A stretch of 64,000 nucleotides of DNA from an uncultured Acidobacteriota bacterium (GCA_963823995.1 CAWGNQ010000006.1:173610-237609), one strand, 5' to 3'; numbered from the stretch's first letter, positions 1-63,317 are shown. The notes: generated by a model not told the origin, from the letters alone. A program made the numbers and translations.

Positions 1-267
1 GCCTCCCGGCGAGCCCGCTTCGTCTGCAGTCTTTGTGCGATCCTGGATGAAAAGCAATCCGTCGAAGTCGAGGGCACCGTCGAAGGGCTGATCACGCCGT
101 TCCCTCGGGGTGACGAGGGCTTTGGTTACGATCCGATCTTTCTCTATGAGCCTCTCGGCCGGACGTTCGGCGAATTGTCCTCCGCCGCGAAGAACACCGT
201 ATCGCATCGTGCTGTCGCCCTGCAGAAGCTGAAAGCCCGACTGCGCGAACAACTGGGGCCCATTTAG
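1..267 (+). CDS. rdgB: dITP/XTP pyrophosphatase (RdgB/Ham1 family), C-terminal fragment; the 5' end lies outside the window
   Basis: In-frame from position 1 to TAG at 265-267. Contains the ...GFGYDPIF... motif and the C-terminal tail typical of non-canonical purine NTP pyrophosphatases. Confidence 0.7.
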   Translation, partial: ASRRARFVCSLCAILDEKQSVEVEGTVEGLITPFPRGDEGFGYDPIFLYEPLGRTFGELSSAAKNTVSHRAVALQKLKARLREQLGPI

Positions 268-300
268 ATCTCGCCCGACCGCGCGCTCCATTCGGCCACG

Positions 301-2388
301 TCACGGCGCATCGGCCTTCTGTCGCTCGTCGAGGGACAGCTGCCGTAGGAGTACTTCCGGGTTGGTCGTCGGTGCCTGGCAGGTGTACGACTGGCAGACG
401 TACGCCGTGGCCTTCCCCTGTTGGGGCGGGCGGTCTCGCAGCAGGGGAAGCGGCTCCTCGGCTGACAGATCCGAGGCGGATGCCAAGACGAGAACTTTGC
501 GCGGCAAGTAATGGTCCCGAAGTACCCGTGCGAGGGACTCCCTCTCCGACGGCTCTCCGACGATGACCACCTGCTGAACCGGTCCAACATGAAAGTCAGC
601 CGCACACAGCCAGTTACTGAATGCTTCGGGATAGCGAAGCAGAGCAGGCGCCATCCGTTCCACCATGCGATCCGCCATCTCCCGGAGGTGTTCCTCACCG
701 GTCAGTTCGGCAAGGACGAGAAGATTCCAAAGAGATGCGGAATTGCCGCTCGGCGTGGCGTTATCGAAATGCTCTCTGGGCCGAATCAGGAGCTCTTCGT
801 GATCCGTCGGAGTGAAGAAGAAATCGGCCGTCGAGTCGTCCCAGAACAGTTCCAACTGTGTCTGCGTCAGAGTCCGGGCCCGTTCGAGCCAGATGCGGTC
901 GCCCGTTGTCTGGAAGATCCTGAGCAGCCCCGCAGCCACATCGGCGTAGTCCTCGAGATAACCGTTCAGGCGGGCCTGGCCGTCTCGCCAGGTTCGCTTC
1001 AGTCGGCCGTCCTGAACCATTTCGTTCCAAAGAAATTCTGCCGATCGGAGAGCGACATTCAGATAGCGGGGTTCCTTCAATGCAAAGGCAGCCTCCGAGA
1101 AGGATTGAAGCATGAGGCCGTTCCATGAGGCGAGGATCTTGTCGTCCAGGCCGGGTCGAACCCGGCTCTCGCGCTCTGCCAGGAGCCTCCCGCGACATCG
1201 ATCGAGGACCCGGGTCAGTTCGTCGGCCGGAACTCCACGCTCCCGGGCCATTTCTTCGAGCTCACGGTTCTGGTGCAGGATGTTGGAGCCTTCCCAGTTT
1301 CCCGTCGCCGCGACGCCGTAATACTCATTGAAGAGGCCCGCTTGTTCGCTGCCGAGAATGCCTTCGACCTCGGCCGCGCTCCAGACATAGAATTTCCCCT
1401 CTTCCCCTTCACTGTCTGCATCTTCCGCCGTGTAGAAGCCACCCGACGCATGCGTCATCCGCCTGAGAACGTAATCGAGCGTCTCCCGTACGACCTGACG
1501 GTAGTGCTGGTTGCCGGTGACCTGATGGGCGGCGAGGTAGAGCCGGCTGAGCAGGGCATTGTCGTAGAGCATCTTCTCGAAGTGCGGGGCGAACCAGCGC
1601 TCATCAGTGGAATATCGATGAAAGCCCCCGCCGAGCTGATCGTAGATCCCACCGCGAGCCATCGCGTCGAGCGTTAGCGTCACCGCCTCCAGCGCTGAGC
1701 GATCGCCGGAACGGTAGTAGATACGCAGCAAGAACTCGAGCGACATGGCGGCGGGGAACTTGGGTGCTCCGCCGAAGCCACCATGTCTGGGGTCCAATCG
1801 CTGGATCAGGGTGCCGGCCGCAGACTCCAGGGAGGCTTCGTCGACGAGCCGGGTCCCACCGGTTCCGAGATAGCTGGTTTGCTCGAGCGCAGCAGCGATC
1901 TTGGATCGATCGGCGTCGATTTCATCGCGGCGATTCCGGTAGAAGTCGGAGACGCCCTGCAGGACCTTCGGAAAGCCGGGACGTCCCGGCAGGTCGTGGG
2001 GCGGAAAGTAGGTACCACCAAAAAAGGGGACGAGCCGGGGCGTCAGGAAGACGGTCAGAGGCCAGCCTCCCTGGCCCGTGCTCGCCTGGACATAACCCAT
2101 GTAGATGGAGTCGAGGTCGGGCCGTTCCTCGCGATCCACTTTGATGTTCACGAAACCCTTGTTCATGCGGGCAGCGATCTCATCGTCTTCGAACGACTCC
2201 CGCTCCATGACGTGGCACCAGTGACAGCTCGAATAGCCGATGCTGAGGAGGATCGGCTTGTCCTTGGTGCGCGCGCGCTCGAGGGCTTCATCGCCCCATG
2301 GAAACCAGTCCACAGGATTATGCGCATGCTGGCGCAGGTAAGGGCTGGACTCATGAATCAGACGGTTCGACGGGCGGGGGGACATGGA
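301..2388 (-). CDS. Thioredoxin-domain protein, YyaL/DUF255 family (N-acylglucosamine 2-epimerase-like C-terminal domain)
   Basis: ORF 301..2439. N-terminus ...[52 protein letters not shown]... is diagnostic of DUF255. I placed the start at MSPRPSNRL (internal Met) by family alignment. Confidence 0.8.
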
Positions 2389-2574
2389 TGCATTGTAGCA
2401 GACCGTTTTTGGCGCTTTCGGGCTCTCCGCTTTGGGCATTGGGATCCTGCGATGAAACGGATGCCGTCCCCTTGTCCAAAGGGCGCTCCCGGGCCGGCTC
2501 TTTGCATTGCATCGGACGCCACGCCACGCGATCCATCGCGAGAGCTCGTCGAAGAACCGGCGCTGTCCCCGAGC

Positions 2575-3906
2575 TCAGGTGACGTGGATTTCTCGGCGGT
2601 TCGAGAGGCGGTAGGCGCCTTCGACGAGGCCTGCGCCCCCAACCAGTCCGGCGACCACCCAGAGGTGACCCGGGTGGTCGGACAGGACCTGGAACAGGAG
2701 CGCAACCAGCGCCGCCAGACACGCCAGTACGCCCAGTCCTGAGAGCCAGCGACGGCTCCCGGTTTTCTTCGCCAGCGACCAGTTGGCGGCATTCACGGCC
2801 CCGAAGATGATGAGGAAACCGGTACTCCCGAGCGTCGAGATCGAGGAGAGGTTGGCAAGGTTGGCCAACAGCAATGATAGCGCCACCGTAATCAGGAGTC
2901 CCTCGATGTGGCGGTTCCAGACCTTTTTCTCGAGGAAGGCCGGTAGCTCGCCCTCCTTGGCGATCGTGAAGCTGAGGCGGGCCGAGCCGTAAAGGGTGGC
3001 ATTGATGGCCGAGAACGTCGAGAGCAACGCGGCGACGGCGATCAGCCGAAAACCGAATTCACCGAGAAAGGGCCGCGCGGCTGCTGCCAGCGCGTAGTCT
3101 TCTGCGCCGGCGATCTGGCTCAGGCTCAGGTTGCCCACGGTAACCATCGAAACGAGGACGTAAAGGATGATGACGAACCCCACCGCGCTGAAGTAGGCGC
3201 GGGGCAGGACCCGTTTGAAATTCCGGACATCTTGCGCCGTGTTGGCGATGAGTTCGAAGCCCTCATAGGCGACGAAGATGATCATCCCGCCTGCCAGGAG
3301 GTGCAGCGGCGGAGCCCAGGTCGGCGGAGCCAGTCGACCCGATTCGATGCCGAAGCAGCCGACACCGATGAAGAGCAGGAGGAGTGAGACCTTCGCGATC
3401 ACGACGTACGTTTCGGCCCGCCCAATGATCTCGGCGCTCAGGAGATTGAGCGAGGCTGGGAGCAGGATGGCCGCGCTGATCATGAGGTTCTGTCCCCAGG
3501 TCTGCCAGCTCTGAGGGAGGAAAGTTGCGCCGTACCCTCCGAATGCGTACGCGTAGAGTGCCACCATTACGATGTAGCTCAGCCAGAGAAGAGTATTGAG
3601 GCTGCCGGTAAAGAAATTTCCTCCGAAAGCCTGATCGAGGAAAACGACGGTGCCGCCCTGGCTCGGGTAGGTTACAGATAATCGGGCATAAGAATAGGTC
3701 GTCAGGAGGGCCACTCCGCCGGCAACCAGAAAGGCTACGGGAGTGCCCCCTCCGGCGAGCGCGACCGCGAGGCCGAGGACAGCGAAAATCCCTCCGCCGA
3801 CCATTCCTCCCACTCCGATCGCCGTCGTGGCGAGGAAGCCGATCTTTCCCTCAGCATCGCTCGTCTGTCCGCTCCAGGCGGGCCCGGCCTTCGTCTTTGC
3901 GGTCAA
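2575..3906 (-). CDS. Amino acid permease (APC superfamily)
   Basis: 443 aa with 12 predicted TM helices and the N-terminal G-rich motif (IGVGGMVGGGIFAVLG) typical of APC transporters. Confidence 0.8.
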   Translation of the reverse strand: MTAKTKAGPAWSGQTSDAEGKIGFLATTAIGVGGMVGGGIFAVLGLAVALAGGGTPVAFLVAGGVALLTTYSYARLSVTYPSQGGTVVFLDQAFGGNFFTGSLNTLLWLSYIVMVALYAYAFGGYGATFLPQSWQTWGQNLMISAAILLPASLNLLSAEIIGRAETYVVIAKVSLLLLFIGVGCFGIESGRLAPPTWAPPLHLLAGGMIIFVAYEGFELIANTAQDVRNFKRVLPRAYFSAVGFVIILYVLVSMVTVGNLSLSQIAGAEDYALAAAARPFLGEFGFRLIAVAALLSTFSAINATLYGSARLSFTIAKEGELPAFLEKKVWNRHIEGLLITVALSLLLANLANLSSISTLGSTGFLIIFGAVNAANWSLAKKTGSRRWLSGLGVLACLAALVALLFQVLSDHPGHLWVVAGLVGGAGLVEGAYRLSNRREIHVT

Positions 3907-3977
3907 CTCTCACGCTCCCCTCTGATTTCGGCCTTTCAAGGAGTGCACCCCTCACTTGGAGTTCACTCTCTTGTCGA

Positions 3978-4796
3978 CTAGAAGCCCACACTCGCCCCCC
4001 CATCGACCGGCAGGCAGGCTGCCGTGATGTAGCGGCCGGCGGGTGAACAAAGAAAGACGACGGCCCAGCCAACATCCTCCGGTTCTCCGAAACAGCCCAG
4101 CATTGTGCGGGAGAGAACCCTCTCCCTGCGTCCCGGGTCTCCCTCCATCGATTGGTCGAGCATCCTGCTCTGGATCCACCCTGGCGCCACCGCATTGAAG
4201 CGGACTCCGCTCCGGGAGTATTCGGCGGCCAGAGAGCGGACCATTCCGAGGACGCCGGTTTTGGCGGTGCTGTAGGTCAGTACCAACGGCAATCCCAGGA
4301 AGGAAGCCATAGAGGCGATGAAGACGACCGAACCGTTCCGGGCGGCGATCATATCGGGCAGGCAGGCCCGGGTCAGGGAAAAAGCCCCGGTAAGGTGAAC
4401 ATCGATCACTTGCTGAAGTTCACGTTCCGAGGTTTCGAGTGCCGGTTTTTTCAGGTGGACGCCTGCATTGTTGACCAGCATGCTGACGGGTCCCACCTGC
4501 TCGCGAATGCGCGTGATCAGTCCGTCAGCGGCATCGAAGTCCGTTACATCGTGGACGAAACAGAAGGCCCGCTTTCCAAGCGAATCCACGGCCGTACGGA
4601 GGATGCTTTCGCGCCGTCCGATCAAAACGACTCGGGCTCCGGCGGACCAGAGACATCGGGCGATCCCCCACCCGATGCCGGTTCCGCCGCCGGAGACCAA
4701 GGCCACACGCCCGGCGAGATCGAACGCATCTCCAAGGTGCGGTGTGTCTCGAGAGGAATCTCCGCTCGATCGCCCGGGCTTCGGTTCTTGGGTCAT
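3978..4796 (-). CDS. SDR-family oxidoreductase (short-chain dehydrogenase, gluconate 5-dehydrogenase-like)
   Basis: Rossmann motif VSGGGTGIGWGIA, NNAG motif and YxxxK catalytic region (YSTAKTG). Confidence 0.8.
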   Translation of the reverse strand: MTQEPKPGRSSGDSSRDTPHLGDAFDLAGRVALVSGGGTGIGWGIARCLWSAGARVVLIGRRESILRTAVDSLGKRAFCFVHDVTDFDAADGLITRIREQVGPVSMLVNNAGVHLKKPALETSERELQQVIDVHLTGAFSLTRACLPDMIAARNGSVVFIASMASFLGLPLVLTYSTAKTGVLGMVRSLAAEYSRSGVRFNAVAPGWIQSRMLDQSMEGDPGRRERVLSRTMLGCFGEPEDVGWAVVFLCSPAGRYITAACLPVDGGASVGF

Positions 4797-4881
4797 CGAT
4801 ACTCCCTGACTGCTTTACCTTAGCGTACCGGATGCGCACGGCAATTCCTATCCAGGAAGGGTTTCGAATGAGACGGTGAGT

Positions 4882-5008
4882 AGTCCGGGCATTTTGCCCG
4901 GAACGATTCAGCGGGCTTTCAGCCTATCGAGGCCCGACTCCGGGCCTGATTACAAACAGAGCCATAGCACGGCCTGCTCACCGGACGTTCCGGGCAGAAT
5001 GCCCGGAC
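4882..5008. repeat. About 127-bp element bounded by 24-bp inverted repeats, each arm itself a hairpin
   Basis: AGTCCGGGCATTTTGCCCGGAACG at 4882-4905 is the reverse complement of CGTTCCGGGCAGAATGCCCGGACT at 4985-5008 (1 mismatch). An internal palindrome GGCCCGACTCCGGGCC lies near 4929-4944. Confidence 0.45.
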
Positions 5009-5237
5009 TGCTCTCAGTCTCAGGATGTGCGGAAGATATTCGAGGGTTCTGAATGGGTTGCCAGACCCCCACCGTTCATTCCACATACAGGGATCCGACG
5101 GGAGTCGGAGCTTCCGGCTGGAGGCCTGGCAGACAGGTGTAAAGCGTTCGTCCTTGGGCACCTGAATTCTGCACACTGGTTGAGATTCGTAAGTATTGCA
5201 TGATCGTTTCCCGAAACGGACGAAATCGCCGGTTTGC

Positions 5238-5360
5238 TCAGATCACGTGGGGTCGATCGTCATCGTGCCTGCGGCCCACGAATGAACGGGTCATCGCTAC
5301 GATTGCAGCAAGACCAACAATCGAACCGGCCAGCGTCAGCAACAGCATTCCATCGCTCAT
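5238..5360 (-). CDS. Hypothetical 40-aa hydrophobic peptide (MSDGMLLLTLAGSIVGLAAIVAMTRSFVGRRHDDDRPHVI)
   Basis: Below the ORF-track size cut-off. AAAGGAGA Shine-Dalgarno about 10 nt upstream of ATG at 5360. One TM helix followed by a charged tail. GC3 about 65%. Confidence 0.3.
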   Translation of the reverse strand: MSDGMLLLTLAGSIVGLAAIVAMTRSFVGRRHDDDRPHVI

Positions 5361-5543
5361 GATGAGTATGTCTCCTTTCTCGTGTAGTCGAACACCTTCC
5401 TATACAAGCAATGCAGGTGCCAATGCGCGGAAAGCCCTGCCGATAAGCGTATTTCCGGGTCAAAACGTCGTGGATCGCTGAGCGTACGCCGTTCCTGCAG
5501 CACCGCAGAGTGGCTTATTGAGTTGGAGCGGCAAGGTCGGAGT

Positions 5544-5577
5544 GTGGCAATGTTGCCGAACGGTGCAAATCTGCCAC
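5544..5577. promoter_or_regulatory. Nested palindrome GTGGCAATGTTGCC...TGCCAC about 190 bp upstream of the small peptide ORF
   Basis: GGCAATGTTGCC is a 12-bp perfect palindrome. The outer GTGGCA / TGCCAC arms are also complementary. Confidence 0.2.
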
Positions 5578-5755
5578 AGGAACCGGTGGATGCGACCCTC
5601 GAACAGTGGATTGAGTCGCCAGGTCTCCGTCGAGGCTTCCAGCATCCACTCCCATTACCTTGACATCGCTGAATCGGGAAGAAATTCCTCGAAGCCCAGG
5701 CGCCGCCTGACCGATCGACTCTGCTCGCAGAGGGAGGGGTCAGGGCCGAGCAGGA

Positions 5756-6382
5756 TCAGGGGAGAAGTTGCCGGCGTCTCAGTGCCTGTCGGACTCCCTC
5801 CACGCCGGCCACGACCTCAGCTTGGAATCCGGCGGTTCTTGCGCTTTCGACGCACTCGGAGTTGTCGTCGAAGAAGAGGATTCGGTCGGCCGGACGTTTC
5901 AGATCGCTCAGGACGAACTCGAAGATCTCACGATCCGGTTTGGCGGCCCCGATCTCATGTGACAGGTAGCAGCGTTCGAAGAACGTGCTCAGGCCTCGCG
6001 CATCCCGGATTCGCGGCCAGGCGAGAGCATTGTTGTTGCTCAGACAGGCCAGCCGGAATCGCGGGCGGAGCTCGGCCAGGAGTTTCGGCGTCTCCGGGAA
6101 CGGTCCGCGGTCCCATTCGGCGAAGCGGGCGAGGAAATCGGAAGGTGTCATCTCCAGGTCGAGTTCGGCGATCGCGTCGGCGGCAAATTCGACCTCGCTG
6201 ATTTCTCCCCTCTCAAATCTTCGGACTGCGGGTGAGTCGAGCCAGAACTTGCGCGCTTCTTCCTTCGAAAGGCGGGCTCCGGTGAGTTCACGGAGGGATC
6301 CGACCCCATCCCAGTGGACGAGCACACCGCCCAGGTCGAACAGAAGGATCTCAACGGAATCTGCGAATGTCCGATGGCTCAA
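5756..6382 (-). CDS. HAD-IA family hydrolase (YihX-like phosphatase)
   Basis: Motif I LLFDLGGVL, motif II LSNN, C-terminal FFDD motif. I chose the TTG start at 6382 because it has AAGGAG 7 nt upstream; the ORF-track ATG at 6430 has no SD. Confidence 0.7.
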   Translation of the reverse strand: MSHRTFADSVEILLFDLGGVLVHWDGVGSLRELTGARLSKEEARKFWLDSPAVRRFERGEISEVEFAADAIAELDLEMTPSDFLARFAEWDRGPFPETPKLLAELRPRFRLACLSNNNALAWPRIRDARGLSTFFERCYLSHEIGAAKPDREIFEFVLSDLKRPADRILFFDDNSECVESARTAGFQAEVVAGVEGVRQALRRRQLLP

Positions 6383-6474
6383 GAGGCATCTCCTTGAGGG
6401 ATTTAGTAGAATCCGACCCACAGTGTACACGTTCGCCTTCGGCGAGGCGAAGGAACGAGGAGCGGACCGATGTC

Positions 6475-8745
6475 ATGAATCTGCAGCGCGGCGATCGTGT
6501 CTCGCATTATGAGCTGATCGATGAACTGGGTGTAGGCGGTATGGGTATCGTCTATCTGGCCCGCGACAGCCGACTCGACCGACGGGTCGCCCTGAAGTTC
6601 CTTCCGCCCGGCATGAACGTCGGTGACGAGACGACGGAGCGGTTCATCGCAGAGGCCAGACTGACCTCTGCACTCGATCACCCGAATATCTGCACGATTT
6701 ACGATATCGACTCGACGTCCGAGGGACAAACCTTCATCGTCATGGCCTACTATGAGGGCGAGACCCTTCGACAGCGCGTTGACAAGGGTGCCCTTTCGGT
6801 TCGTGAGGCAACCGGCCTGGCGATCCAGCTCTGCGAGGGGCTGGCCAAGGCACACCGCTGCGGAGTCGTCCACAGAGACATCAAGCCGGACAATCTGATC
6901 CTCACCGGGGACGGCGTCCTGAAGATCGTCGATTTCGGAATCGCCAAGCTGCTCGGCAGCAAGGGTCAAACGCAGCCGGGTCTCGTAGTCGGAACCCCCG
7001 CCTACATGGCACCCGAGCAGATCCAGGGCGCAGACGTGGACCAGCGTGCAGACATCTGGTCGGCTGGGGTCGCGCTCTTCTACATGCTCTGTGCCCAACT
7101 ACCGTTTCAGGGGGATTCCGATCTCAGTCTGATGTATTCGATCGTCCACGAGCCACCTCGAAAGATCCGGGATGTGCGTGGGGAAGTCCCGGAATTTCTC
7201 GATCAGGTTCTGGACCGGGCGCTGGCCAAGGACCCGGGTTCGCGTTATCCCTCGGCCGAAGACATGTTGGCCGGTCTCAGGTCGAGCCAGGGGACCGGCG
7301 AGTCTTCGGCGATCCGGGAGCCGGCATTCGAGTCGGCTGATCCCTCGATCGCGTCGCTCGCGGTGATGACGTTCCGGGACCTGAGCCCTGAACGTGATCA
7401 GGCGTCGCTCTGCGAAGGACTGGCGGAAGCCATCATCGCGGACTTGGGGCGCCTCGAAGGACTCAGGGTCATCTCGCCGACTTCGAGTTTCCGTCTCTCC
7501 GCCGAGGAAGCGACGCTTGCCACCATCGGCGAGAAACTCGACGTGCAGGCGGTTCTCGAGGGCAGCCTTCAGCGCAGCGGAAGCCGTCTGCGCGTACTCA
7601 TCCGTCTCGTCCGGGTCCAAACCGGAGAGATTCTCTGGACGCATGACTTTCGTGCCGAACTGTACGATATCTTCGAGATCCAGGACCAGATTTCCCGAAG
7701 CGTGGCCGAGGCCTTCGAGGTTCAGCTGGGTCGAACCCGGCCGCCGCAGGCCATGACGAAACCCAGGACCGCTCAGGTCGCTGCTTATTCCGCCTATCTT
7801 CGGGGGCGCTATTTCTGGAACCGGCGCAGCGTCGATGCCATCAAGCGGGGCATCGAGTCGTTTACGGAGGCCATCGACATCGACCCGAGGTTCGCTCCGG
7901 CTCTCGCTGGTCTGGCAGATTCCTACGCCATTCTCGGCATCTACGGAGCGTACCCTCCCAAAGAAGTGATGTCGAGAGCCAAGGATACGGCCCTGCGAGC
8001 TCTGGAAGCCGACGACACGGTTGCGGAAACACAGGTCTCCCTGGGGTGCGTCGAGTCCGTCTTCGAATGGAACTGGACAGCAGGCGAGCAGCGATTCCTG
8101 CGAGCGATCGAGCTCAACCCGAACTACGCCGCCGCCTATCACCGCTATGCCGTCGACAACCTGATTCCGCGGGGTAGGCTGGACGAGGCAATTGATCGGA
8201 CGCGTTTTGCCCTTGATTTGGACCCGGTGTCTCCGGCAATATCGACGTCAGTTGGGCTTCCATACTATTTCTCCGGCGATTTCGGAGCAGCGATCGGTCA
8301 CTTTCATGATGCCCTGGAAATAGACGGCGGGTTTGCACTCGCCCACGCGTTCCTGGGGCGGGCCTGTGTTCAGGCCGGCAGTGTCGACGAAGGAATGGAG
8401 CACCTCGAGACGGCCGTGAGACTCTACGATGGGAACACGAACATGCTCGCCATGTACGGATGTGCGGCGGCGGCTGCGGGCCGAGGTGATGTGGCCCGCG
8501 ACGTCAAGGAGCGTCTCGACAAGATCGGCCGGGACCGATATGTTTCGGCCTACGACGTCGCCAGTCTCGAGGCGGCATTGGGAAAATCGGACCAGTCGAT
8601 CGCAGCCTTGCGGTCTGCCGTGGAAGAACGATCCTGTCTGCTCATCTACCTCGCCTGTGATCCCACTTTCAGCGGGTTGAGAAGTTGTCCCGAGGTTTTG
8701 GCACTGCTCGCACAGGTACAGGGGGAGCACGACCATGTCACATGA
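6475..8745 (+). CDS. Ser/Thr protein kinase with TolB-N-like domain and C-terminal TPR repeats
   Basis: Hanks kinase motifs GVGGMGIVY, VALK, HRDIKPDN, DFG, APE. A TolB-like domain (ASLAVMTFRDLS...) and TPR repeats follow. Start taken at MNLQRGDRVSHYELIDELG. Confidence 0.85.
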   Translation: MNLQRGDRVSHYELIDELGVGGMGIVYLARDSRLDRRVALKFLPPGMNVGDETTERFIAEARLTSALDHPNICTIYDIDSTSEGQTFIVMAYYEGETLRQRVDKGALSVREATGLAIQLCEGLAKAHRCGVVHRDIKPDNLILTGDGVLKIVDFGIAKLLGSKGQTQPGLVVGTPAYMAPEQIQGADVDQRADIWSAGVALFYMLCAQLPFQGDSDLSLMYSIVHEPPRKIRDVRGEVPEFLDQVLDRALAKDPGSRYPSAEDMLAGLRSSQGTGESSAIREPAFESADPSIASLAVMTFRDLSPERDQASLCEGLAEAIIADLGRLEGLRVISPTSSFRLSAEEATLATIGEKLDVQAVLEGSLQRSGSRLRVLIRLVRVQTGEILWTHDFRAELYDIFEIQDQISRSVAEAFEVQLGRTRPPQAMTKPRTAQVAAYSAYLRGRYFWNRRSVDAIKRGIESFTEAIDIDPRFAPALAGLADSYAILGIYGAYPPKEVMSRAKDTALRALEADDTVAETQVSLGCVESVFEWNWTAGEQRFLRAIELNPNYAAAYHRYAVDNLIPRGRLDEAIDRTRFALDLDPVSPAISTSVGLPYYFSGDFGAAIGHFHDALEIDGGFALAHAFLGRACVQAGSVDEGMEHLETAVRLYDGNTNMLAMYGCAAAAAGRGDVARDVKERLDKIGRDRYVSAYDVASLEAALGKSDQSIAALRSAVEERSCLLIYLACDPTFSGLRSCPEVLALLAQVQGEHDHVT

Positions 8746-9502
8746 ACCGGCAGGCACCCGGACAGGGAAACGCGGCCGCGAGCCCGTCCTCCACGTCAAA
8801 GTCGAACGCGACGGTGTGGAGAGTTGCGATTTCACCTTTCGCCGGTCGTTTCGCATCGGTCGTGACGACGACTGCGAAATCCAGATACAGAGCCCCGGAA
8901 TCAGTCGGCGGCATGCCGAGGTCCAGTTGGAGGGAGGGTGCTGGCGCCTCAAAGACCTCGACAGTGCCAACGGCGTCTACTTTCAGGGGCGTCGGGTCAG
9001 CGATGTTCCACTGGAGGGCGTCGTGGCCGCCGAGCTGGGACTGAGGGATGCGGTTTTGACCTTCGCGGTGGTTGGGACGGAGCCGCCCGCTCCGGGTGAC
9101 GGTGCCACTGTCGTCGAGAGGCCGCCTTCCGTGACCGAGTATGTCCAGCGTTATTTCGACGGCAAGGCCGTGGGCCCCATGGGGCAGCGTACGAGGATGA
9201 TCCGGGAGGCCTTTAAGGTGGTCGACAGGAAGAAACGACTTCGCTACGGCGCCGCAATCCTCGGCATTCTCGCCGTCACAGCTTCGATCAGTATCTACAC
9301 CTACGTCCAGCACGAGGAGCTCCAGCGCCAGAAGAAGATCGCCGAGGAGATCTTCTACAATATGAAGTCCCTCGAGCTCGAAGATCTCCCGTCTGCAGGC
9401 ACGCGTGGAAGAGACCGGCGATCAGCAGTCACAGGAAGAGCTGTCCGGCTATCGGCGGCAGCAGGACGCGATGGTCCGCAATTACGACCGTTTCCTCGAT
9501 GA
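8735..9502 (+). CDS. FHA domain-containing membrane protein (N-terminal part; reading frame apparently disrupted near 9383)
   Basis: FHA core FRIGRDDDCEIQIQSPGISRRHAEVQLEGGCWRLKDLDSANGVYFQG. A TM helix and the start of a coiled coil follow. After about 9383 the frame turns into an Arg/Ala-rich tail typical of off-frame GC-rich sequence. The start overlaps the kinase stop, consistent with translational coupling. Confidence 0.6.
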   Translation: MSHEPAGTRTGKRGREPVLHVKVERDGVESCDFTFRRSFRIGRDDDCEIQIQSPGISRRHAEVQLEGGCWRLKDLDSANGVYFQGRRVSDVPLEGVVAAELGLRDAVLTFAVVGTEPPAPGDGATVVERPPSVTEYVQRYFDGKAVGPMGQRTRMIREAFKVVDRKKRLRYGAAILGILAVTASISIYTYVQHEELQRQKKIAEEIFYNMKSLELEDLPSAGTRGRDRRSAVTGRAVRLSAAAGRDGPQLRPFPR

Positions 9503-10286
9503 GATGGAGTTCTATCAGGACAGTCATTGGACACCTGAGGACCGTGTGATCCTCCGGGTCTCCCGGATCTTCGGCGAATGCGAGCTGACGATGCCGGCGG
9601 AGTTCCGTAAGAAGGTCTACGAGTACATCGAAAAGTGGAAGACCACACAGCGATTACGGCTGGCCATTCGGCGAGCGCGGGATAACGGCTGGGATACGGT
9701 CGTCGGCGACACGATGCTCAAATACCATTTGCCTCCCCAGTTCTTCTTCCTGGGTCTCCAGGAAAGCAGCTATGACCCGAAGACGATCGGTCCAAAGACT
9801 CGTTTCGGGATCGCCAAGGGAATCTGGCAATTCATCCCGGCCACGGCCCTTCGCTACAAACTGCAGGTGGGACCTCTCGTGGAGCTGCCGCGCTTCGACC
9901 CGAGAGATGAGCGCTTCACCTTCGAGAAGGCGACGGATGCTGCGGCGCGCTACATCCGCGACATTTACAATACCGAGGCGCAGGCGTCCGGACTGCTGGT
10001 CATCGCCTCCTACAACTGGGGCGAACAGAACGTCCGGAGCCTCGTCCGAAAGCTCCCGGAGAACCCCCGCGATCGGAACTTCTGGCAGCTGCTCGAGCAG
10101 TACGGCAGGAGGATTCCGACAGAGACGTATGACTACGTCTTCTACATCGTGTCGGCGGCCGTCATCGGCGAGAATCCCAAGCTGTTCGGATTCGATTTCG
10201 ACAATCCTCTCCAGACGGTCTCCAATCAGACGGACCGGCAACGCTCCGAAGTGCAGAGTCAGAAGATCCCCGACACGACCAACTGA
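9405..10286 (+). CDS. Lytic transglycosylase (SLT domain) protein; probably the C-terminal continuation of the FHA protein
   Basis: SLT motifs ESSYDP...GIAKGIWQFIPATA...ASYNWG. The coiled-coil sequence continues in this frame from about 9384 (ISRLQARVEETGDQQSQEEL), upstream of the GTG called at 9405. Confidence 0.6.
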   Translation: MEETGDQQSQEELSGYRRQQDAMVRNYDRFLDEMEFYQDSHWTPEDRVILRVSRIFGECELTMPAEFRKKVYEYIEKWKTTQRLRLAIRRARDNGWDTVVGDTMLKYHLPPQFFFLGLQESSYDPKTIGPKTRFGIAKGIWQFIPATALRYKLQVGPLVELPRFDPRDERFTFEKATDAAARYIRDIYNTEAQASGLLVIASYNWGEQNVRSLVRKLPENPRDRNFWQLLEQYGRRIPTETYDYVFYIVSAAVIGENPKLFGFDFDNPLQTVSNQTDRQRSEVQSQKIPDTTN

Positions 10287-10329
10287 TCGGTCGCCTGCGC
10301 GTTCACGACGACAACGCCGACAAGGATTT

Positions 10330-10361
10330 CAGGCACAGCTCCGAGTCGGATGCTGTGCCTG
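10330..10361. terminator. Strong hairpin (10-bp perfect stem CAGGCACAGC/GCTGTGCCTG, 12-nt loop) between the convergent SLT gene and blaI-like gene
   Basis: Perfect inverted repeat read directly from the sequence. It sits between two convergent stop codons. No T-tract follows, which is common in high-GC genomes. Confidence 0.4.
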
Positions 10362-10389
10362 ACGGACGTAGGGCTCACTTCGTTCCGCC

Positions 10390-10782
10390 CTATTTCTTCT
10401 TCTTGGCGTCTTTCGCTTCCGAAAGATCCCGTTCCAGCGTCTCGGCGACTTGCTTCTTCTCGAGCGGGGTCAGGTACTCTTCGCTCACCAGAGCCTGGAC
10501 GAGTGGTCCGGCGGCTCCGGAGAACGCCTTTTCGATGAGAGACTTGAGGGCAGAACGCTGGGCCTGCTGTCGGGTGATCAAGGCAGTGTACAGTCGGGTG
10601 TTTGCCCGCAGTCGGGAGCGGAGAGCCTTCTTTTGAGCCAGCCGAACCATGATGGTTTGTACCGTCTGGTAAGCCCAGCTCGTTTGAGGTTCCACAACTT
10701 CCAGCACATCGCGCACACTGCTTTCCACAGGACGGTCCCACACAGCGTTCATGACGATCCATTCCGCATCAGACAATCGCAT
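10390..10782 (-). CDS. BlaI/MecI/CopY-family transcriptional repressor
   Basis: N-terminal winged helix MRLSDAEWIVMNAVW...TVQTIMVRLAQKKAL and a C-terminal dimerisation helix. Start at 10782 has an AAGGAG SD 7 nt upstream. Confidence 0.8.
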   Translation of the reverse strand: MRLSDAEWIVMNAVWDRPVESSVRDVLEVVEPQTSWAYQTVQTIMVRLAQKKALRSRLRANTRLYTALITRQQAQRSALKSLIEKAFSGAAGPLVQALVSEEYLTPLEKKQVAETLERDLSEAKDAKKKK

Positions 10783-11032
10783 CTCCGAACTCCTTCTTTG
10801 TGCCATTCCTCGTTTGTCCCAGGCGCCATCGGGCCGCCGAACATCGGGCGACTCCAGGCTGACCCGGGTCTCCCCACAGTTAGCCTCGAGGTCCTTGAAG
10901 GAAGATGATCATGAGCCGTCCCAGCACTCCGGTCGGGTCTCGCGACCCACTTCCGTGTCTGCGTTCACAGAATTCCCGGAAACCGACGTGGCCATGCTCA
11001 GGTCCCCCACCAACCCAAGGTAGAACACATTT

Positions 11033-11049
11033 ACTACGAATCGTGTAGT
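11033..11049. promoter_or_regulatory. Candidate operator: ACTAC-N7-GTAGT inverted repeat carrying TAC/TGTA half-sites, next to an AT-rich stretch, upstream of the blaI-like gene
   Basis: Inverted repeat seen in the sequence. BlaI/CopY-family operators are TACA/TGTA dyads, but the spacing here is atypical. Confidence 0.25.
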
Positions 11050-11151
11050 GGGCACAAGACCCTCAGGCGAATATTCTTGTATTTTCCGTCAATAATTCTA
11101 GGAATTGACCCTGAACAGAAATCGGGAGGTCGGCCGGCGAGCTGCCGGGGA

Positions 11152-12486
11152 CTACTCCAGCTGATCGAGGAAGCGGGTCACCTCGATCCGGTCTTTTTGG
11201 GCAGCGAGCGCCCTTGCCGTCCAGCCCTGGGGTGTCGCCGCATCGGGGTCGGCACCCCCTTCCAGCAGCGCTTTGACCGTTTCCAGTTGACCCTCCCACG
11301 CTGCATACATGAGGGAAGTCATCCCCTGGCGGTCGGTGAGGTCGGTCCGAGCGCCGTGCTCGAGTAGGACCTTGACGGTTTCCGTGTGGCCTGCGCCGGC
11401 CGTGGTTGCCAGGAGCGGGACGCCCTCCTTGTCTTTCCGATTCGGGTTGGCTCCCGCTTCGAGAAGTGTGCGGGCGGCGTCGCTCTGACCTTTCGACGCG
11501 GCCCAGGCGAGGGCGGTCCAGCCGTCCCGGTCCTGAGCCTCGAGTTGGGCTCCCCGCTTCAGGAGAAGTCGAATCGCCTCCGAATGTCCTCCGAGCGCGG
11601 CCCACATGAGAGCCGTTCTCCCGTCGTTGGTCCAGACGTTGACCTCGGCCTTTCGCGAGATCAACAGGTCGAGCATTTCGGTTCGGCCGTTCGAGGCGGC
11701 CAGCATGAGCGCGGTCCGGCTCTCAGCGTCCTGGATCCGCGGGTCCGCACCGTGTCCGAGCAGGACCTCGGCCGCACCTGTGTGGCCTTCCGAGGCAGTC
11801 TGCATGAGCGGAGTCCTCCCATTGGTGTCGCGTGCGTCGGGGTCGGAGCCGCCTTCGAGCAGCCGCCGGACGGATGGAGCATCGCCGGTGAGGGCCGCCC
11901 ACATCAGAGCCGACCAGTTGGCCGAGTCGACCGGGGCGACGCTCGCCCCTCGCGCGAGAAGAAGATCGATGACCTCCGAGTGACCGTTCATCGCCGCAAA
12001 GATCAGGGGAGTGCGGCCCGACGGATCGATCTCCTCGAGGCCGGCGCCATGTTCGACCAGAACTCTCACGGCATCAGCGGAGCCTGCCTCGGCGGCCCTC
12101 ATCAGGGCCGTTCTGCCGGCGCTGTCGCGGGCCTCGAGAGCTGCCCCGCGATCGAGGAGCAGGGCGACGATGTCGCCTTTGCCCAGCTCGGAGGCAAGCA
12201 GAAGGGGAGTAGCACCGTCCTTGTCCAGGACGGTCGGATCTGCCCCGGCATCGAGGAGCGCTTCGACGAGCTCACGGCCCCCCTTTTCCACGCCGAGCAT
12301 CAAGATGGTCCTCCCCTTTCCGAGCTGGAGGTTGGCGTCGGCACCGTCTTCGAGCAGCGAGACGACGGCGGCCGAATCTCCTTCCTCGGTACGGGAAACC
12401 AACTCCCGATTGACATCGGCACAAGAAATCACAAGCAGGCCGGTAGCCAGTGACAGAAAGATCGAGGAGCAGCGCTTCGGATGCAC
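11152..12486 (-). CDS. Ankyrin-repeat lipoprotein (about 12 ANK repeats)
   Basis: Signal peptide with lipobox LLVISC. Repeated G-TPLM-A--GH motifs every 33 aa. AAAGGAGGTG SD upstream of ATG. Confidence 0.8.
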   Translation of the reverse strand: MHPKRCSSIFLSLATGLLVISCADVNRELVSRTEEGDSAAVVSLLEDGADANLQLGKGRTILMLGVEKGGRELVEALLDAGADPTVLDKDGATPLLLASELGKGDIVALLLDRGAALEARDSAGRTALMRAAEAGSADAVRVLVEHGAGLEEIDPSGRTPLIFAAMNGHSEVIDLLLARGASVAPVDSANWSALMWAALTGDAPSVRRLLEGGSDPDARDTNGRTPLMQTASEGHTGAAEVLLGHGADPRIQDAESRTALMLAASNGRTEMLDLLISRKAEVNVWTNDGRTALMWAALGGHSEAIRLLLKRGAQLEAQDRDGWTALAWAASKGQSDAARTLLEAGANPNRKDKEGVPLLATTAGAGHTETVKVLLEHGARTDLTDRQGMTSLMYAAWEGQLETVKALLEGGADPDAATPQGWTARALAAQKDRIEVTRFLDQLE

Positions 12487-12553
12487 GACAGCACCTCCTT
12501 TTCCGGCAGGGCTCGTGTTCAGGGACCCCTGCGAACATGTACGGACTTGGAAC

Positions 12554-14998
12554 CTAGAACGTCGTGAGGCTGAGCGACGCCTCCGGCAGGCCCTCAGCCG
12601 TCGCCGTTAGTCTGATAGTACCAGCGTTTTTCGTCGACTCAACCACGACGAGGCATTTGCCGTGAAAGGCCTTGCGATGGTCCGCCTGAAAAGACTGGTG
12701 ACTGATCTGGCTGCCGTTGTCGACGCCGATGATCCGGCCACCGCCTTCGATCTGGAAATCCACAAGGTTGTCAGCGAGAGGAACGACCGTTCCATTTTCA
12801 TCCACGACCCGCACAGTAACGAACGCAAGATCCCTTCCGTCGGCATGAATCCGGTCACGATCCGCTTCGAGTTGCAGCGCAGCCGGGAGCCCGGCCGTCC
12901 GGATCTCGCGGACCAGGGTTTCTTCGCCGGCGACCCGGCCGATCGCCTTCAGCGTTCCCGGCACATACTTCAATCGCCACATCAGATGGAGATTGTCGGG
13001 CCCCCGCTTGCGAACTCCCTGGGACTTTCCGTTGAGGAACAGTTCGACTTCCTCGCAGTTGGTATACGCCCAGACGTCGATCGTGTCGCCGTTCTCCCAG
13101 TTCCAGTGGGGAAAGACGTGAAGAACAGGCGTCTCGGTCCACTCGCTTCGAAACAGGTAATAGGAATCCTTGGGGAAACCTGCCAGGTCGACGATGCCGA
13201 AGTAGGAACTCCGTGCGGGCCACGAATAGGGGGTGGGTTCCCCGAGATAGTCGAAGCCGGTCCATATGAACTGTCCCGAAAGGAAGTCATGCTTTTGGAT
13301 CACCCTCCAGGTTGCTTCGAGCGTCGAACCCCATGGGACCCGGCAATTGTCGTACGCGGAGCAGGAGTAGTCGGGATTTCCCTTGAAGGGCCGGTTACCG
13401 CGGGCCGGCCAGATTCGAACCTCGTCGGAGGGCATGTCATAACTGCCGCGCGTGGCCAGAGCGGAACAGGTCTCCGTCGCGATGAATTTCTGATCGGGGA
13501 AATTCTCGAGGAATTTTGGATAGTCCTCGTGATGATAGTTGAGGCCGATGAGGTCCAGGGCGCCTGAGCGAACCAGTGAATTGCTCGGCTCAGGATTGTT
13601 CATCGCAGCCGTAATCGGCCGAGTCGTATCCAGTTCCCGAACGATCCCCGCCAACTCCCGAGCGATCGAAACACCGGATTCATCCCACTGCTCCCTCACC
13701 TCGTTGCCGATGCTCCAGATCGTCACACTTGGGTGATTTCGGTCGCGGAGGACCATATCCTCGAGGTCCCGCTTGTGCCATTCGTCCCAGTCCAGGTGGT
13801 AGTCGTACTCCGTTTTGCCCATCGCCCACATATCGAAGGCTTCGTCCATCACGATGAGTCCCATTCGATCGCAGAGTTCGAGCAACTCCGGTGCTGGAGG
13901 ATTATGGGATGTGCGAAGCGCATTGACTCCCATCCCCTTGAGGATTTCGATCTGCCGCTCCAGTGCCCGGGTGTGGATCGCAGCTCCCAGACAGCCGAGG
14001 TCATGGTGATCGCAGACTCCGTTGATCTTCATGTTCTTGCCGTTGAGGAAGAAGCCTTTGTCGCGATCGAATGAGAATTCCCGGATCCCGAACGGTGTTT
14101 GGTATTCGTCGCAGACCCGCTGGTCCCGGAGGCATGCCACCTGTGACACTGCTTTGTAGAGATTGGGCTCGTCGATCGACCAGAGGCTCGGTGACGCCAC
14201 GTGGAAATCCTGGGAGAACACGGCCGTCGAACCCGCTGTTATGTCCTTATCCGCGGAAACGCGAGTGACCTCCTTGCCGTTCGGGTCGTAGAGGATCGTG
14301 GTCAGCTGAACCCCTTGATCACTCTCCGCCGCGTTCTTCACCGTGGTCGCGACATGCACGGTTGCCGAGTCGGTTGCGATGGTCGGAGTCGTCACGAAGG
14401 TGCCCCAATGATCGACGTGGACCTTTTCGGTCACCTCGAGCCACACGTTGCGATAGATCCCGGAGCCTGAATACCAGCGGGAATTCGGCTGCTCGGAGTT
14501 GTCGACCCTGACCGCCAGCACGTTGGCCGTGCTGCCGAGGTGCAGATGGGGAGTCAATTCATAGCGAAACGAGCTGTATCCGTACGGGCGTTTGCCGAGA
14601 TAGGCTCCGTTGATCCAGACCTCGCTGTTGCGATAGACCCCGTCGAAGTCGATGAAGACGAGGCGGTTCGCATCGCTTTCCGGGAGCGTGAAGGTCTTCC
14701 GATACCATCCAATCCCCCCGGGCAGGGCCCCACCACCGGGAGTGGCAGGATTGCTCTCGCTGAATTCTCCCTCGATGCTCCAGTCATGAGGGACGTCGAG
14801 GGTTCTCCAGTTGGAATCATCGAAGTCCGACGCCTGGGCGTCCGTGACGTCTCCCAGATGGAATCTCCATCCGGCTCCGAAGTTGGTGATCTGGCGTGAA
14901 CTTTCGGTGGACGGCTTTCCTGGGGGCACACAGGAGCCGATGAGCAGCGAAATGAGGATGATCATCCCGCTCAATCCTGTTTTCTGTGTCATAACCAT
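12554..14998 (-). CDS. Glycoside hydrolase family 2 (beta-galactosidase/beta-mannosidase/beta-glucuronidase type), lipoprotein
   Basis: GH2 sugar-binding, Ig-like and TIM-barrel regions, including the catalytic NEV segment WSIGNEVRE. Start taken at MVMTQKTGLSGMIILISLLIGSC (lipoprotein signal). ORF track starts at a GTG at 15052. Confidence 0.85.
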   Translation of the reverse strand: MVMTQKTGLSGMIILISLLIGSCVPPGKPSTESSRQITNFGAGWRFHLGDVTDAQASDFDDSNWRTLDVPHDWSIEGEFSESNPATPGGGALPGGIGWYRKTFTLPESDANRLVFIDFDGVYRNSEVWINGAYLGKRPYGYSSFRYELTPHLHLGSTANVLAVRVDNSEQPNSRWYSGSGIYRNVWLEVTEKVHVDHWGTFVTTPTIATDSATVHVATTVKNAAESDQGVQLTTILYDPNGKEVTRVSADKDITAGSTAVFSQDFHVASPSLWSIDEPNLYKAVSQVACLRDQRVCDEYQTPFGIREFSFDRDKGFFLNGKNMKINGVCDHHDLGCLGAAIHTRALERQIEILKGMGVNALRTSHNPPAPELLELCDRMGLIVMDEAFDMWAMGKTEYDYHLDWDEWHKRDLEDMVLRDRNHPSVTIWSIGNEVREQWDESGVSIARELAGIVRELDTTRPITAAMNNPEPSNSLVRSGALDLIGLNYHHEDYPKFLENFPDQKFIATETCSALATRGSYDMPSDEVRIWPARGNRPFKGNPDYSCSAYDNCRVPWGSTLEATWRVIQKHDFLSGQFIWTGFDYLGEPTPYSWPARSSYFGIVDLAGFPKDSYYLFRSEWTETPVLHVFPHWNWENGDTIDVWAYTNCEEVELFLNGKSQGVRKRGPDNLHLMWRLKYVPGTLKAIGRVAGEETLVREIRTAGLPAALQLEADRDRIHADGRDLAFVTVRVVDENGTVVPLADNLVDFQIEGGGRIIGVDNGSQISHQSFQADHRKAFHGKCLVVVESTKNAGTIRLTATAEGLPEASLSLTTF

Positions 14999-15071
14999 AA
15001 CTCCTGGTTCCCACCGTCCGAGTGGCTGCCGAAAGCAGACCGCATCCGGCACCCGGGAGTAAGAACCGATT

Positions 15072-17507: not shown

Positions 17508-17523
17508 GCTGTCCCTCAGTCAC

Positions 17524-54031: not shown

Positions 54032-54130
54032 GTCGAGACGTTTAACACGGATACCGGGAAATGTCGACCGCGCCGAACACCGCGCCGAACGCCCCTTCGT
54101 CGAGTGGGGCGGAACAAAAGCGGAACCAAC

Positions 54131-61729: not shown

Positions 61730-63317
61730 TTAGGACCTCGTCCAGGCTCCGTCGACCAAGCGCCAGATGCCGCGCTCATTCTCGTCGCGCAGCTCAACGG
61801 GCAGGAGGCCGACCGGGCAGTCCTGGTAACAGACAGGCCTCAGAAACCGGAAGACGGCCGCGGTGCCGACGGATGTTTGTTTGGAGTCGGTGGTTGCCGG
61901 GTAAGGTCCGCCGTGCTGCATGGCGTGACCCACCTCGACGCCGGTCGGGAAGCCGTTGAAGATCAGGCGTCCGACCTTTTCGCGCAGGATACGGACCAGG
62001 TCGGAATAGGTCTGGAGTTCCTCGCCGGTCGCGTGGACCGTGGCGGTCAGGTTGCCCTCGAGAGATTCGGCCACCTCGAGCATTTCGTTCCTGTCCTCGC
62101 AGGTTACGAGAAGTGACGACGGCCCGAACACCTCTCCGGACAGCACGGAGTCCTCACGGAACGTACCGGCATCGGTCATCATCAGAATCGATGCGGCTTC
62201 GGTCTTCTCCGCGTCCGGTTTTCCCGGCGATTGCCCGACGATCCTCACGCCGGCCCGCGAGCAGAAGCTCGAAGACTCCCCGTTCGAAGGCCTCCCGGAT
62301 GCCCGAGTGCAGCATCGTTCCAGGGTTGGAGCCGTCCAGTGCGGAGCGGAGCGCCTCGAGGAAGAGGTCGAGGGAAGGACCCTTCAGTGCGACTACGAGA
62401 CCAGGGTTGGTGCAGAACTGACCGACGCCGAGTGTCACGGACTGGACCAAACCCCTGGCGATACGTTCGGCGTCCGTCTTCAGAACGGCCGGAAGCAGGA
62501 ACACCGGATTGATGCTCCCCATTTCCGCGTACACGGGAATCGGCTCGGAGCGCTGGGCGGCGGCGTCGAACAGCGCCCGGCCGCCGGCTTGAGAACCGGT
62601 GAAGGCCACGGCCTTCACAGCAAAATGGGATGCTAGTCGGAGGCCCACTTCATGGGACGCACCGTGCAGCATGGAGAAGGTCCCCTCCGGCATGCCGTGT
62701 CGGTGCCCGGCCTCGGCGATGGCTTTGGCCACCAGTTCCGAAGTTCCCGGGTGTGCGGGGTGCGCCTTGCAGACGACCGGGTTTCCCGCGGCCAGGGCCG
62801 ACGCCGTATCACCGCCGGCCACGGAGAAGGCGAGTGGGAAATTGCTGGCACCGAAGACCGCCACGGGGCCGATCGGGATCAGCATGCGGCGGAGATCCGG
62901 TTTGGGGATGGGCTTGCGCGCGGGGTCTCCGTGATCGATGCGGGCGCCCACCATCGATCCTTCATCGATAAGATCGGCGAACATACGGATCTGATTCACC
63001 GTCCGGGTCCGCTCACCCTGGAGGCGGCCTGCAGGAAGACCGCTCTCTTCCGAGGCTCGCTGGATCAGCGCCTCTCCGAGTCCTTCGATCTCCGAGGCCA
63101 TCTGCCGCAGGAACGCGCTGCGGATTCCAGGATCGGCGAGTTTCGGACTGGCGAAGGCCGACCCGGCGAGCTCGAGTGCGCGATCGGTCTCGGCTTCCGT
63201 GGCCTCGATGAAGGCCGGTTCAAGTTCTCGGCCGTTCGACGGGTTCACGGCACGGATCGTCTTGGATCCTTCTCCGCTCCATTGATGACCGATGAGGTTC
63301 TTTCCCGTAAGCGTCAT
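61730..63317 (-). pseudogene. NAD(P)-dependent aldehyde dehydrogenase of the alpha-ketoglutarate semialdehyde dehydrogenase (KGSADH) type, interrupted by a frameshift near 62238-62246
   Basis: N-terminal two-thirds in ORF 62154..63317 (catalytic FTGSQAGG..., EMGSINP). The C-terminal third (EVFGPSSLLVTCED...LEGNLTATVH) continues in ORF 61730..62248 in a different frame. Confidence 0.6.

Follow-up and report, generated by a model that had tools for sequence, protein, structure and literature searches.

Kinase-FHA control of the cell wall is known from mycobacteria (PknB-FhaA-MviN and FhaB/FipA; Rv0020c, Rv0019c), where the FHA proteins are adaptors that carry no enzymatic domain, and where the targets are precursor flipping or divisome proteins. 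GarA and OdhI, which are small soluble regulators of enzymes of the tricarboxylic acid cycle, carry, on one polypeptide, an FHA domain and a flexible segment with a TxxI/V-type motif that can be phosphorylated, and their kinase-dependent binding in cis serves as an on/off switch. MltD, a lytic transglycosylase of family 1D (Pseudomonas aeruginosa structure 8rhe), is a lipoprotein of the outer membrane that carries LysM repeats at its C-terminus and does not extend into the cytoplasm. In the type III secretion system (T3SS), YscD and PrgH possess a cytoplasmic FHA-like domain, a single transmembrane helix and a periplasmic domain; these FHA-like domains are generally described as devoid of phospho-threonine-binding residues, the periplasmic part of YscD consists of ring-building motifs and contains no enzyme, and the T3SS transglycosylases EtgA and IpgF are separate proteins. 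The secretion system of type VI (T6SS) co-encodes a Hanks kinase, a PP2C and an FHA protein, and the machine needs a lytic transglycosylase to breach the peptidoglycan (PMC13584744). In its PpkA/TagE-PppA-Fha1/TagH arrangement, the transglycosylase is likewise a protein apart from the FHA protein, MltE being a housekeeping enzyme encoded elsewhere. Here, we describe a locus in a stretch of 64,000 nucleotides from an uncultured Acidobacteriota bacterium (GCA_963823995.1, CAWGNQ010000006.1:173610-237609; the whole of this stretch is hereafter called the window), in which the gene of a Ser/Thr kinase overlaps that of a protein joining an FHA domain, through a membrane helix, to an SLT lytic transglycosylase domain, the frame of the second gene being broken by a single nucleotide as assembled. 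We consider, at a probability of about 80%, that this locus is an intact two-gene kinase/FHA-SLT module with a proposed phospho-control, and that the frameshift is only apparent, being a consensus error of technical origin.

When the frame is restored, the FHA-SLT protein is 95% identical to a homologue of the same length (P0001, 516 aa), with 24 differences, and Pfam matches both of its domains, the FHA domain at 60 bits (cut-off 20.7, residues 40-93) and the SLT domain at 52 bits, as the first-pass annotation had expected of a frame-corrected translation. The FHA assignment (PF00498) is supported by the profile score, by the phospho-threonine-binding residues and by a beta-sandwich fold, and GarA and OdhI are among the top structural matches of the domain. 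The SLT domain (PF01464) scores above its cut-off, adopts a goose-lysozyme-like helical fold and contains the E-S, GxxQ and YNxG motifs; its catalytic Glu343 is encoded at 9762-9764 within LQES, and GIAKGIWQF and SYNWG are also found. In the AlphaFold2 model (mean predicted local distance difference test score of 82), an FHA sandwich (residues 18-113) and a disordered linker are followed by one long helix (151-227), which includes the transmembrane segment, then by a second helix (230-256) and by the helical catalytic domain; where a coiled coil had been read at first, the model thus has these two helices. KKRLR stands before the single hydrophobic helix (residues 169-191; hydropathy 1.68-1.85), which places the FHA domain in the cytoplasm and the SLT domain in the periplasm. 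The protein is thus predicted to be a bitopic inner-membrane protein, with the FHA domain and a linker of about 55 residues on the cytoplasmic side, and a helical stalk and the SLT domain on the periplasmic side (Table 1).

This architecture belongs to a family. Among the 120 best database matches, which we take as the family homologues, FHA and SLT are both present in all but one, at lengths of 477-649 aa, so the fused arrangement that had been sought in orthologues is there; the lone exception (P0115; 412 aa, SLT only) comes from a 1.3-kb contig. A pattern scan with one genome per species found an FHA-SLT relative in at least 526 species-level genomes, and the best 80 loci, those studied further here, are all from metagenome-assembled genomes (MAGs) of Acidobacteriota, Calditrichota, Ignavibacteria/Bacteroidota, Nitrospirota, Desulfobacterota and KSB1. 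When 119 members are aligned, G42, H60 and G80 of the FHA domain are invariant and R43, S57, R58 and N79 are present in at least 90%, while E343 and S344 of the SLT domain are invariant and GIAKGxWQF and SYNWG are conserved; further conserved motifs are GECE and the juxtamembrane FYxMKxxEL. The linker has its own consensus, S132-V-T134-x-Y-I/V and G150-x-H-T153-x-M/L-I/V-R. T153 is found in 118 of the 119 sequences, and its +3 position is I, V, M or L in every one; T134 is found in 88, with mostly I, V or M at +3. From the sequence, we regard these two motifs as candidates for phospho-acceptor and FHA-docking sites. The FHA-SLT protein stays under the cut-off of every NCBIfam model, and no paper on the fusion was found by a full-text literature search, most subscription journals lying outside the reach of that search. 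The opinion of the first-pass annotation that the fusion is unusual in itself is therefore not borne out by its occurrence in so many genomes of several phyla; the family is large, strongly conserved, widespread and uncharacterised rather than rare.

Set against the described systems, the locus shares features with each and coincides with none. The logic resembles that of the mycobacterial proteins, but here a lytic transglycosylase is covalently attached, across the membrane, to the FHA domain, the hosts are diderm, and the kinase of the window, unlike mycobacterial PknB, is soluble and without PASTA domains. The PknB/Stk1 PASTA kinase model (NF033483) aligns through the kinase domain alone and, at 294.5 bits, stays under its cut-off of 450, and the NCBIfam model FhaB_Rv0019c reaches 34.8 bits on the FHA-SLT protein against a cut-off of 125. 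The catalytic domain resembles that of MltD, yet the FHA-SLT protein has a predicted anchor in the inner membrane, carries an FHA domain and has no Pfam LysM match, and the model of MltD orthologues (NF008050) aligns to the catalytic domain only, at 38 versus 508 bits. The likeness to GarA and OdhI lies in the FHA domain and a TxxI/V-type motif in one polypeptide; in contrast to these regulators, the motif is C-terminal to the FHA domain, beside the transmembrane helix, and its phosphorylation is a prediction. The topology is that of YscD and PrgH, whereas the phospho-threonine-binding residues are conserved in the FHA-SLT protein. As to the T6SS, the TagH/Fha1 model TIGR03354 stays far under its cut-off, and no T6SS genes are found within about 10 kb of the locus in the window or in a near-identical contig (L088). 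By these equivalog scores, all far under cut-off, and by the lack of LysM, PASTA and T6SS context, the FHA-SLT protein is to be placed outside all of these families.

The gene does not read through as assembled. Its first open reading frame (ORF A, 8735..9502) covers the FHA domain, then the transmembrane helix and then an Arg-rich, out-of-frame tail, and the +1 frame, open from 9366, encodes the rest of the protein to 10286 (ISRLQARVEE... after ...FYNMKSLELE). The slip of one nucleotide that had been noticed near 9381-9384 proves to be a single extra A inserted at 9381/9382, by which GAG becomes GAAG and the presumed true AGCTCGAGA becomes the AGCTCGAAGA of the window. Relative to the contig of the 95%-identical homologue P0001 (L001), this is the sole gap in 1,850 nt (CTCGAAGATC in the window, CTCG-AGATC in the relative), and KSLELEISRLQ spans the break site in all homologues. 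Two sequences nearly identical to the window, which come from further assemblies of this population, lack the extra A, and an intact FHA-SLT gene of 516 codons is called on both. One, a 7.8-kb Logan contig (L089), equals window positions 3262-11099 save for that base (7837 of 7838 aligned columns); the other, a 911-kb ENA assembly contig (L088), is 99.9% identical to the window over 18.7 kb. Over window positions 1-18745, L088 differs by 11 substitutions and 5 single-base indels, and some of these indels break a GH2 gene in L088 which is intact in the window; therefore, these assemblies carry scattered indel errors.

A lesion of the same kind occurs a second time in the window, in an unrelated aldehyde dehydrogenase gene on the - strand (Table 1). 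The gene lies there in two pieces (62154..63317 and 61730..62383), and the Pfam Aldedh match in the first piece covers profile positions 4-294 of 461 only. Residues 22-524 of the repaired protein align to PDB 1eyy with an E-value of 2e-138, and the gene is intact, at 528 aa, in another part of the 911-kb contig (L090), which differs by one A at 62272. The error 10-mer AGCTCGAAGA is found in the window at 9381 and 62272 only, and the correct 9-mer AGCTCGAGA has zero occurrences on its + strand. Since the two broken genes are read from opposite strands, their common cause acts on DNA or sequencing, and not on translation. Further frameshifts were sought in the window by a third-position-GC scan for same-strand frame transitions, which found only the breaks at 9381 and 62272, short or subtle breaks being able to escape such a scan; the other overlapping ORF pairs that it flagged were set aside as shadow ORFs or as ordinary short overlaps between adjacent genes. 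An identical lesion in one and the same 10-mer at two sites, together with near-identical assemblies that lack the A, thus indicates a context-specific consensus error rather than a pseudogene, and this is by far the best explanation of the extra A at 9381, which would then be absent from the organism. It would have arisen in base-calling or polishing at AGCTCGAGA; the sister contigs bear Flye-style names, and many relatives come from the nanopore-only, Medaka-polished assemblies of Microflora Danica (MFD).

The first-pass annotation had left the choice between an indel error and a recent pseudogene, and of these two, the evidence above upholds the former. A real mutation of the strain, separating the FHA and transmembrane part from an SLT part that could no longer be exported, is very unlikely. 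The frameshift does stand in the window as assembled, and the single-nucleotide polymorphisms and the IS4 insertion that distinguish the window from L088 and L090 indicate distinct genotypes in the population; but L089 matches all other 7,837 positions and yet its gene is intact, and two independent real mutations are not expected to share a context of 10 nt, as do this lesion and the counterpart that it has, on the same strand of the contig, in an unrelated gene of the opposite coding strand. Nor is there any further sign of decay, the repaired protein retaining every invariant residue of the family.

Still less credible is a reading of the locus as two genes, one for a 255-aa FHA-transmembrane protein (8735..9502) and another for a separate 293-aa SLT protein that starts at GTG 9405. 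Mechanically both ORFs exist, and the GTG is available, but no Shine-Dalgarno-like sequence lies 5' of 9405, and the SLT piece alone has neither signal peptide nor transmembrane helix and so could not reach the peptidoglycan, whereas the repaired gene provides for the export of the SLT domain. The final 39 residues of ORF A are Arg-rich, out of frame and without homologue, while the +1 frame continues exactly the family consensus ...KSLELEISRLQ.... A split at this point is seen in none of the 120 best homologues, and even the SLT-only P0115 covers 76% of the query, reaching well upstream of the break. The reading as two genes was rejected, since it would leave the SLT piece without start and export signals and ORF A with a tail out of frame. 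The position of the break in an otherwise perfectly conserved gene might also suggest a programmed +1 ribosomal frameshift or transcriptional slippage that restores the full-length protein. This is effectively refuted: the site (CUC GAA GAU CUC) has no slippery heptamer, homopolymer run, stop or rare codon (9370-9390), the shift is conserved in no relative, near-identical assemblies included, and the same extra base in an unrelated gene of the opposite strand points to a cause at the level of DNA or sequencing.

The partner gene encodes a Hanks-type Ser/Thr kinase (PF00069) by profile score and by its catalytic motifs, namely VALK (VALK38, at 6586), HRD (HRD133, at 6871), DFG (DFG153, at 6931) and APE (APE179, at 7009), which are kept in its orthologues; it holds the only kinase domain of the window. 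The ORF extends over 6367..8745, and its in-frame first ATG, at 6367, corresponds to 792 aa in the ORF listing, but the start in use is probably the ATG at 6475, which matches the length called in relatives. An identical 756-aa product is called on L088 and L089 by protein look-up. According to Pfam, the kinase domain is followed by a FlgO/CsgG-like alpha/beta domain and then by TPR repeats (residues 576-697, TPR_19 among the matches). Of the domains assigned at first reading, kinase, TPR, FHA and SLT are all recovered by Pfam; the 'TolB-like' domain corresponds to the FlgO/CsgG-like match, which is weak (FlgO at 19.9 bits, E 7e-4, under the cut-off of 22.6) and yet kept in orthologous kinases. 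No transmembrane segment is found in the kinase, as its 19-residue Kyte-Doolittle maximum is only 1.32.

The overlap that had been read at the junction of the two genes, the kinase stop at 8745 lying beyond the FHA-SLT start at 8735, is confirmed at 11 nt, with a GGAG 7 nt 5' of the FHA-SLT ATG. The identical overlap is kept in L002, L004 and L005, the three closest of the loci with an upstream orthologous kinase, which makes translational coupling plausible in the closest relatives; distant orthologues have a gap of roughly 70-270 nt instead, and therefore the proposed coupling does not hold as a feature of the whole family. In L002 and L004-L013, the FHA-SLT gene directly follows, on its own strand, an orthologous kinase with the same C-terminal module, and these are the loci of the genome scan closest to the query (53-81% identity). 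Over the 80 loci, a kinase domain occurs within 6 kb of the FHA-SLT gene in 48, PP2C in 25 and either in 52; where at least 3 kb is available on both flanks, 41 of 55 loci have a kinase or PP2C. About 20 Ignavibacteria-type loci (Ignavibacteria/Bacteroidota; e.g., L030 5364-13228) have a fixed order of FHA-SLT, PP2C-transmembrane-TPR, Pkinase-PEGA and two TPR-CsgG-like lipoproteins, in which the PP2C gene begins within about 70 nt of FHA-SLT; a subset of them includes a DcrB-like gene, directly upstream of FHA-SLT in about 10. The CsgG/FlgO-like and TPR module is thus fused to the kinase in the clade of the window and encoded as separate lipoproteins in the Ignavibacteria-type operons. At other distant loci, envelope neighbours recur, including CsgG-like TPR lipoproteins, PEGA-domain proteins or kinases, PG_binding_1, DcrB and ExbB/ExbD. 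In one Nitrospirota MAG (L087), the gene directly downstream of the FHA-SLT homologue (9583-11499, 638 aa) fuses a T6SS_VipA with a VipB sheath domain, and a PG_binding_1 protein and several unannotated genes lie upstream of the homologue; in this clade, the family may thereby be connected with a contractile machine.

The conserved association with kinase and PP2C genes supports, at the level of gene order, a phospho-threonine control of the periplasmic lytic transglycosylase, and the kinase-controlled peptidoglycan-cleaving module suggested at first reading gains support from it. In the mechanism that we propose, the kinase would phosphorylate a threonine on itself or on the FHA-SLT linker, with T153-x-x-I and T134-x-x-V as candidates. 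FHA domains prefer pT-x-x-I/L/V, and it is by their fit to this preference that the two motifs qualify as candidate ligands. The FHA domain would bind the phospho-threonine either in cis, as a switch of the GarA/OdhI type, or in trans, by oligomerisation or kinase docking. An altered oligomeric state, position or stalk geometry would then pass via the transmembrane helix, and would switch or localise the cleavage of periplasmic peptidoglycan. In other phyla, the PP2C encoded directly downstream would reset the switch. A broader proposal, which we regard as quite possible but short of probable, is that FHA-transmembrane-stalk-SLT proteins constitute an unrecognised, widespread class of 'inside-out' regulated lytic transglycosylases in diderms, for which cytoplasmic kinase and PP2C would write and erase a phospho-threonine, possibly in T153-x-x-I of the linker, and the fused FHA domain would read it, so that the cleavage of peptidoglycan is gated or positioned from across the inner membrane.

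Several points weigh against an intact, phospho-controlled module with a spurious frameshift. The function of the module is wholly inferred, from phosphorylation and the FHA ligand to the enzyme activity and the coupling of these. T153 stands at the start of a long helix, and its conservation might be structural. No kinase or PP2C lies within 6 kb in 28 of the 80 loci, many of which are on short contigs, and the pairing is therefore frequent and not obligatory. The FlgO/CsgG-like and TPR module is secreted in other phyla, yet it is cytoplasmic in the kinase of the window. With regard to the extra A, the artefact call rests on a comparison of assemblies, and a genuine minority variant that carries it may exist. 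In addition, the nanopore/Medaka origin of the window is deduced only from sister contig names, ENA accessions and MFD MAG relatives, and the sister assemblies ERZ25039500 and ERR11594398 are presumed to belong to the Microflora Danica project.

The FHA-SLT protein could instead be a structural, peptidoglycan-opening part of a trans-envelope machine, comparable to YscD/PrgH or to TagH with MltE, and not a switch of wall remodelling. The YscD-like topology is consistent with such a role, as are a Pfam Yop-YscD_cpl match above cut-off (37.7 bits versus 33.2), the recurring envelope neighbours of distant loci and the VipA/VipB fusion gene downstream of the Nitrospirota homologue. However, the Yop-YscD_cpl match overlaps the FHA match, which scores higher on the same residues, the TagH model TIGR03354 reaches 28.6 bits against a cut-off of 120, and the genes up to about 10 kb to either side, in the window and in its close relatives, are only metabolic or housekeeping ones, with no core gene of a secretion system. 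We regard this role as unlikely overall; for some clades, the opening of the wall for an envelope machine is an alternative to be taken seriously beside the phospho-controlled module.

Table 1. Features of the kinase/FHA-SLT locus and the two single-base lesions, in window coordinates; positions within proteins are given in amino acids (aa)
Feature	Position	Strand	Details
Soluble Hanks-type Ser/Thr kinase gene	6475..8745	+	756 aa; Pfam Pkinase 171 bits
FlgO/CsgG-like ('TolB-N-like') alpha/beta domain within kinase	7357..7650	+	aa 331-428; weak match
Gene junction	8724..8745	+	GGAG 8724-8727; FHA-SLT ATG 8735-8737; kinase TGA 8743-8745; 11-nt overlap
FHA-transmembrane-stalk-SLT gene	8735..10286	+	516 codons after removal of the spurious A at 9381
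FHA domain, predicted cytoplasmic	8786..9073	+	aa 18-113; G42 R43, S57 R58 H60, N79 G80 present
Linker with two TxxI/V motifs, predicted cytoplasmic	9134..9202	+	T134-E-Y-V137, T153-R-M-I156
Single transmembrane helix	9239..9307	+	aa 169-191; KKRLR before it; N-in/C-out predicted
Extra A, probably spurious	9381..9381	+	GCTCG-A-AGATC; shifts frame +1; right after near-invariant periplasmic juxtamembrane FYxMKSLELE
MltD-like SLT domain (family 1 lytic transglycosylase), predicted periplasmic	9534..10259	+	aa 267-508
Second extra A, probably spurious	62272	contig +	10-mer AGCTCGA[A]GA; breaks 528-aa aldehyde dehydrogenase gene on - strand

The surroundings of the locus offer some further observations. 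Convergent with the FHA-SLT gene is a gene for a repressor of the BlaI/Penicillinase_R family (10390-10806, - strand), with no adjoining sensor of the BlaR1 type. Upstream of it, on its own strand (11152-12486), a 444-aa protein with a lipoprotein-like N-terminus is encoded, which consists nearly entirely of ankyrin repeats; this arrangement is kept in L001, L002 and L088. Relatives at 81% identity have an extra gene of 1,183 aa, with a faint DUF5719 match, between the FHA-SLT and BlaI-like genes (L002 9218-12769; gene start in L003 3166-5247), which is absent from the window (10287-10389), L001 and L088. Between the SDR and HAD genes on the other side, about 950 nt (4797-5755) contain no convincing ORF; gene callers place there only a conserved ORF of 40 aa (L088 8764-8886, L002 3908-4030), an Rfam search of this interval gave no family at gathering score, and Rfam and tRNA scans of the whole window found nothing. 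As to the sister assemblies, L088 departs from the window at 16 places, of which 11 fall within about 430 nt (13081-13514) inside the GH2 gene (12554-15052, - strand; 832 aa in the window), and it is three single-nucleotide indels of this cluster that break the gene in L088 and not in the window; the cluster could stem from strains mixed locally or from poor polishing of this part of L088. At 54048/54049 of the window, the sister 911-kb assembly has an insertion of 1,373 bp (L090 1153-2525) with a transposase gene of the IS4 family (Nterm_IS4, DDE_Tnp_1). As the window is without it, this insertion is polymorphic between sequences that are otherwise 99.8% identical.

The frameshift, as an artefact, is of technical interest only: one and the same 10-mer accompanies a false frameshift twice in 64 kb, and in long-read metagenome assemblies, therefore, consensus errors tied to a context can be taken for pseudogenes and are recognisable by the sequence context that they share. 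In the kinase/FHA-SLT module, kinase-FHA cell-wall control has a variant that is widespread, uncharacterised and no surprise in kind. Little is understood of what keeps lytic transglycosylases from destroying the wall, and the direct regulatory inputs known so far are few. If the proposed control is true, the module would be an autolysin under direct phospho-control, with the reader domain forming part of the enzyme, and it would provide, in several poorly studied phyla, a simple case of cytoplasmic signalling that controls the periplasmic cleavage of the wall.

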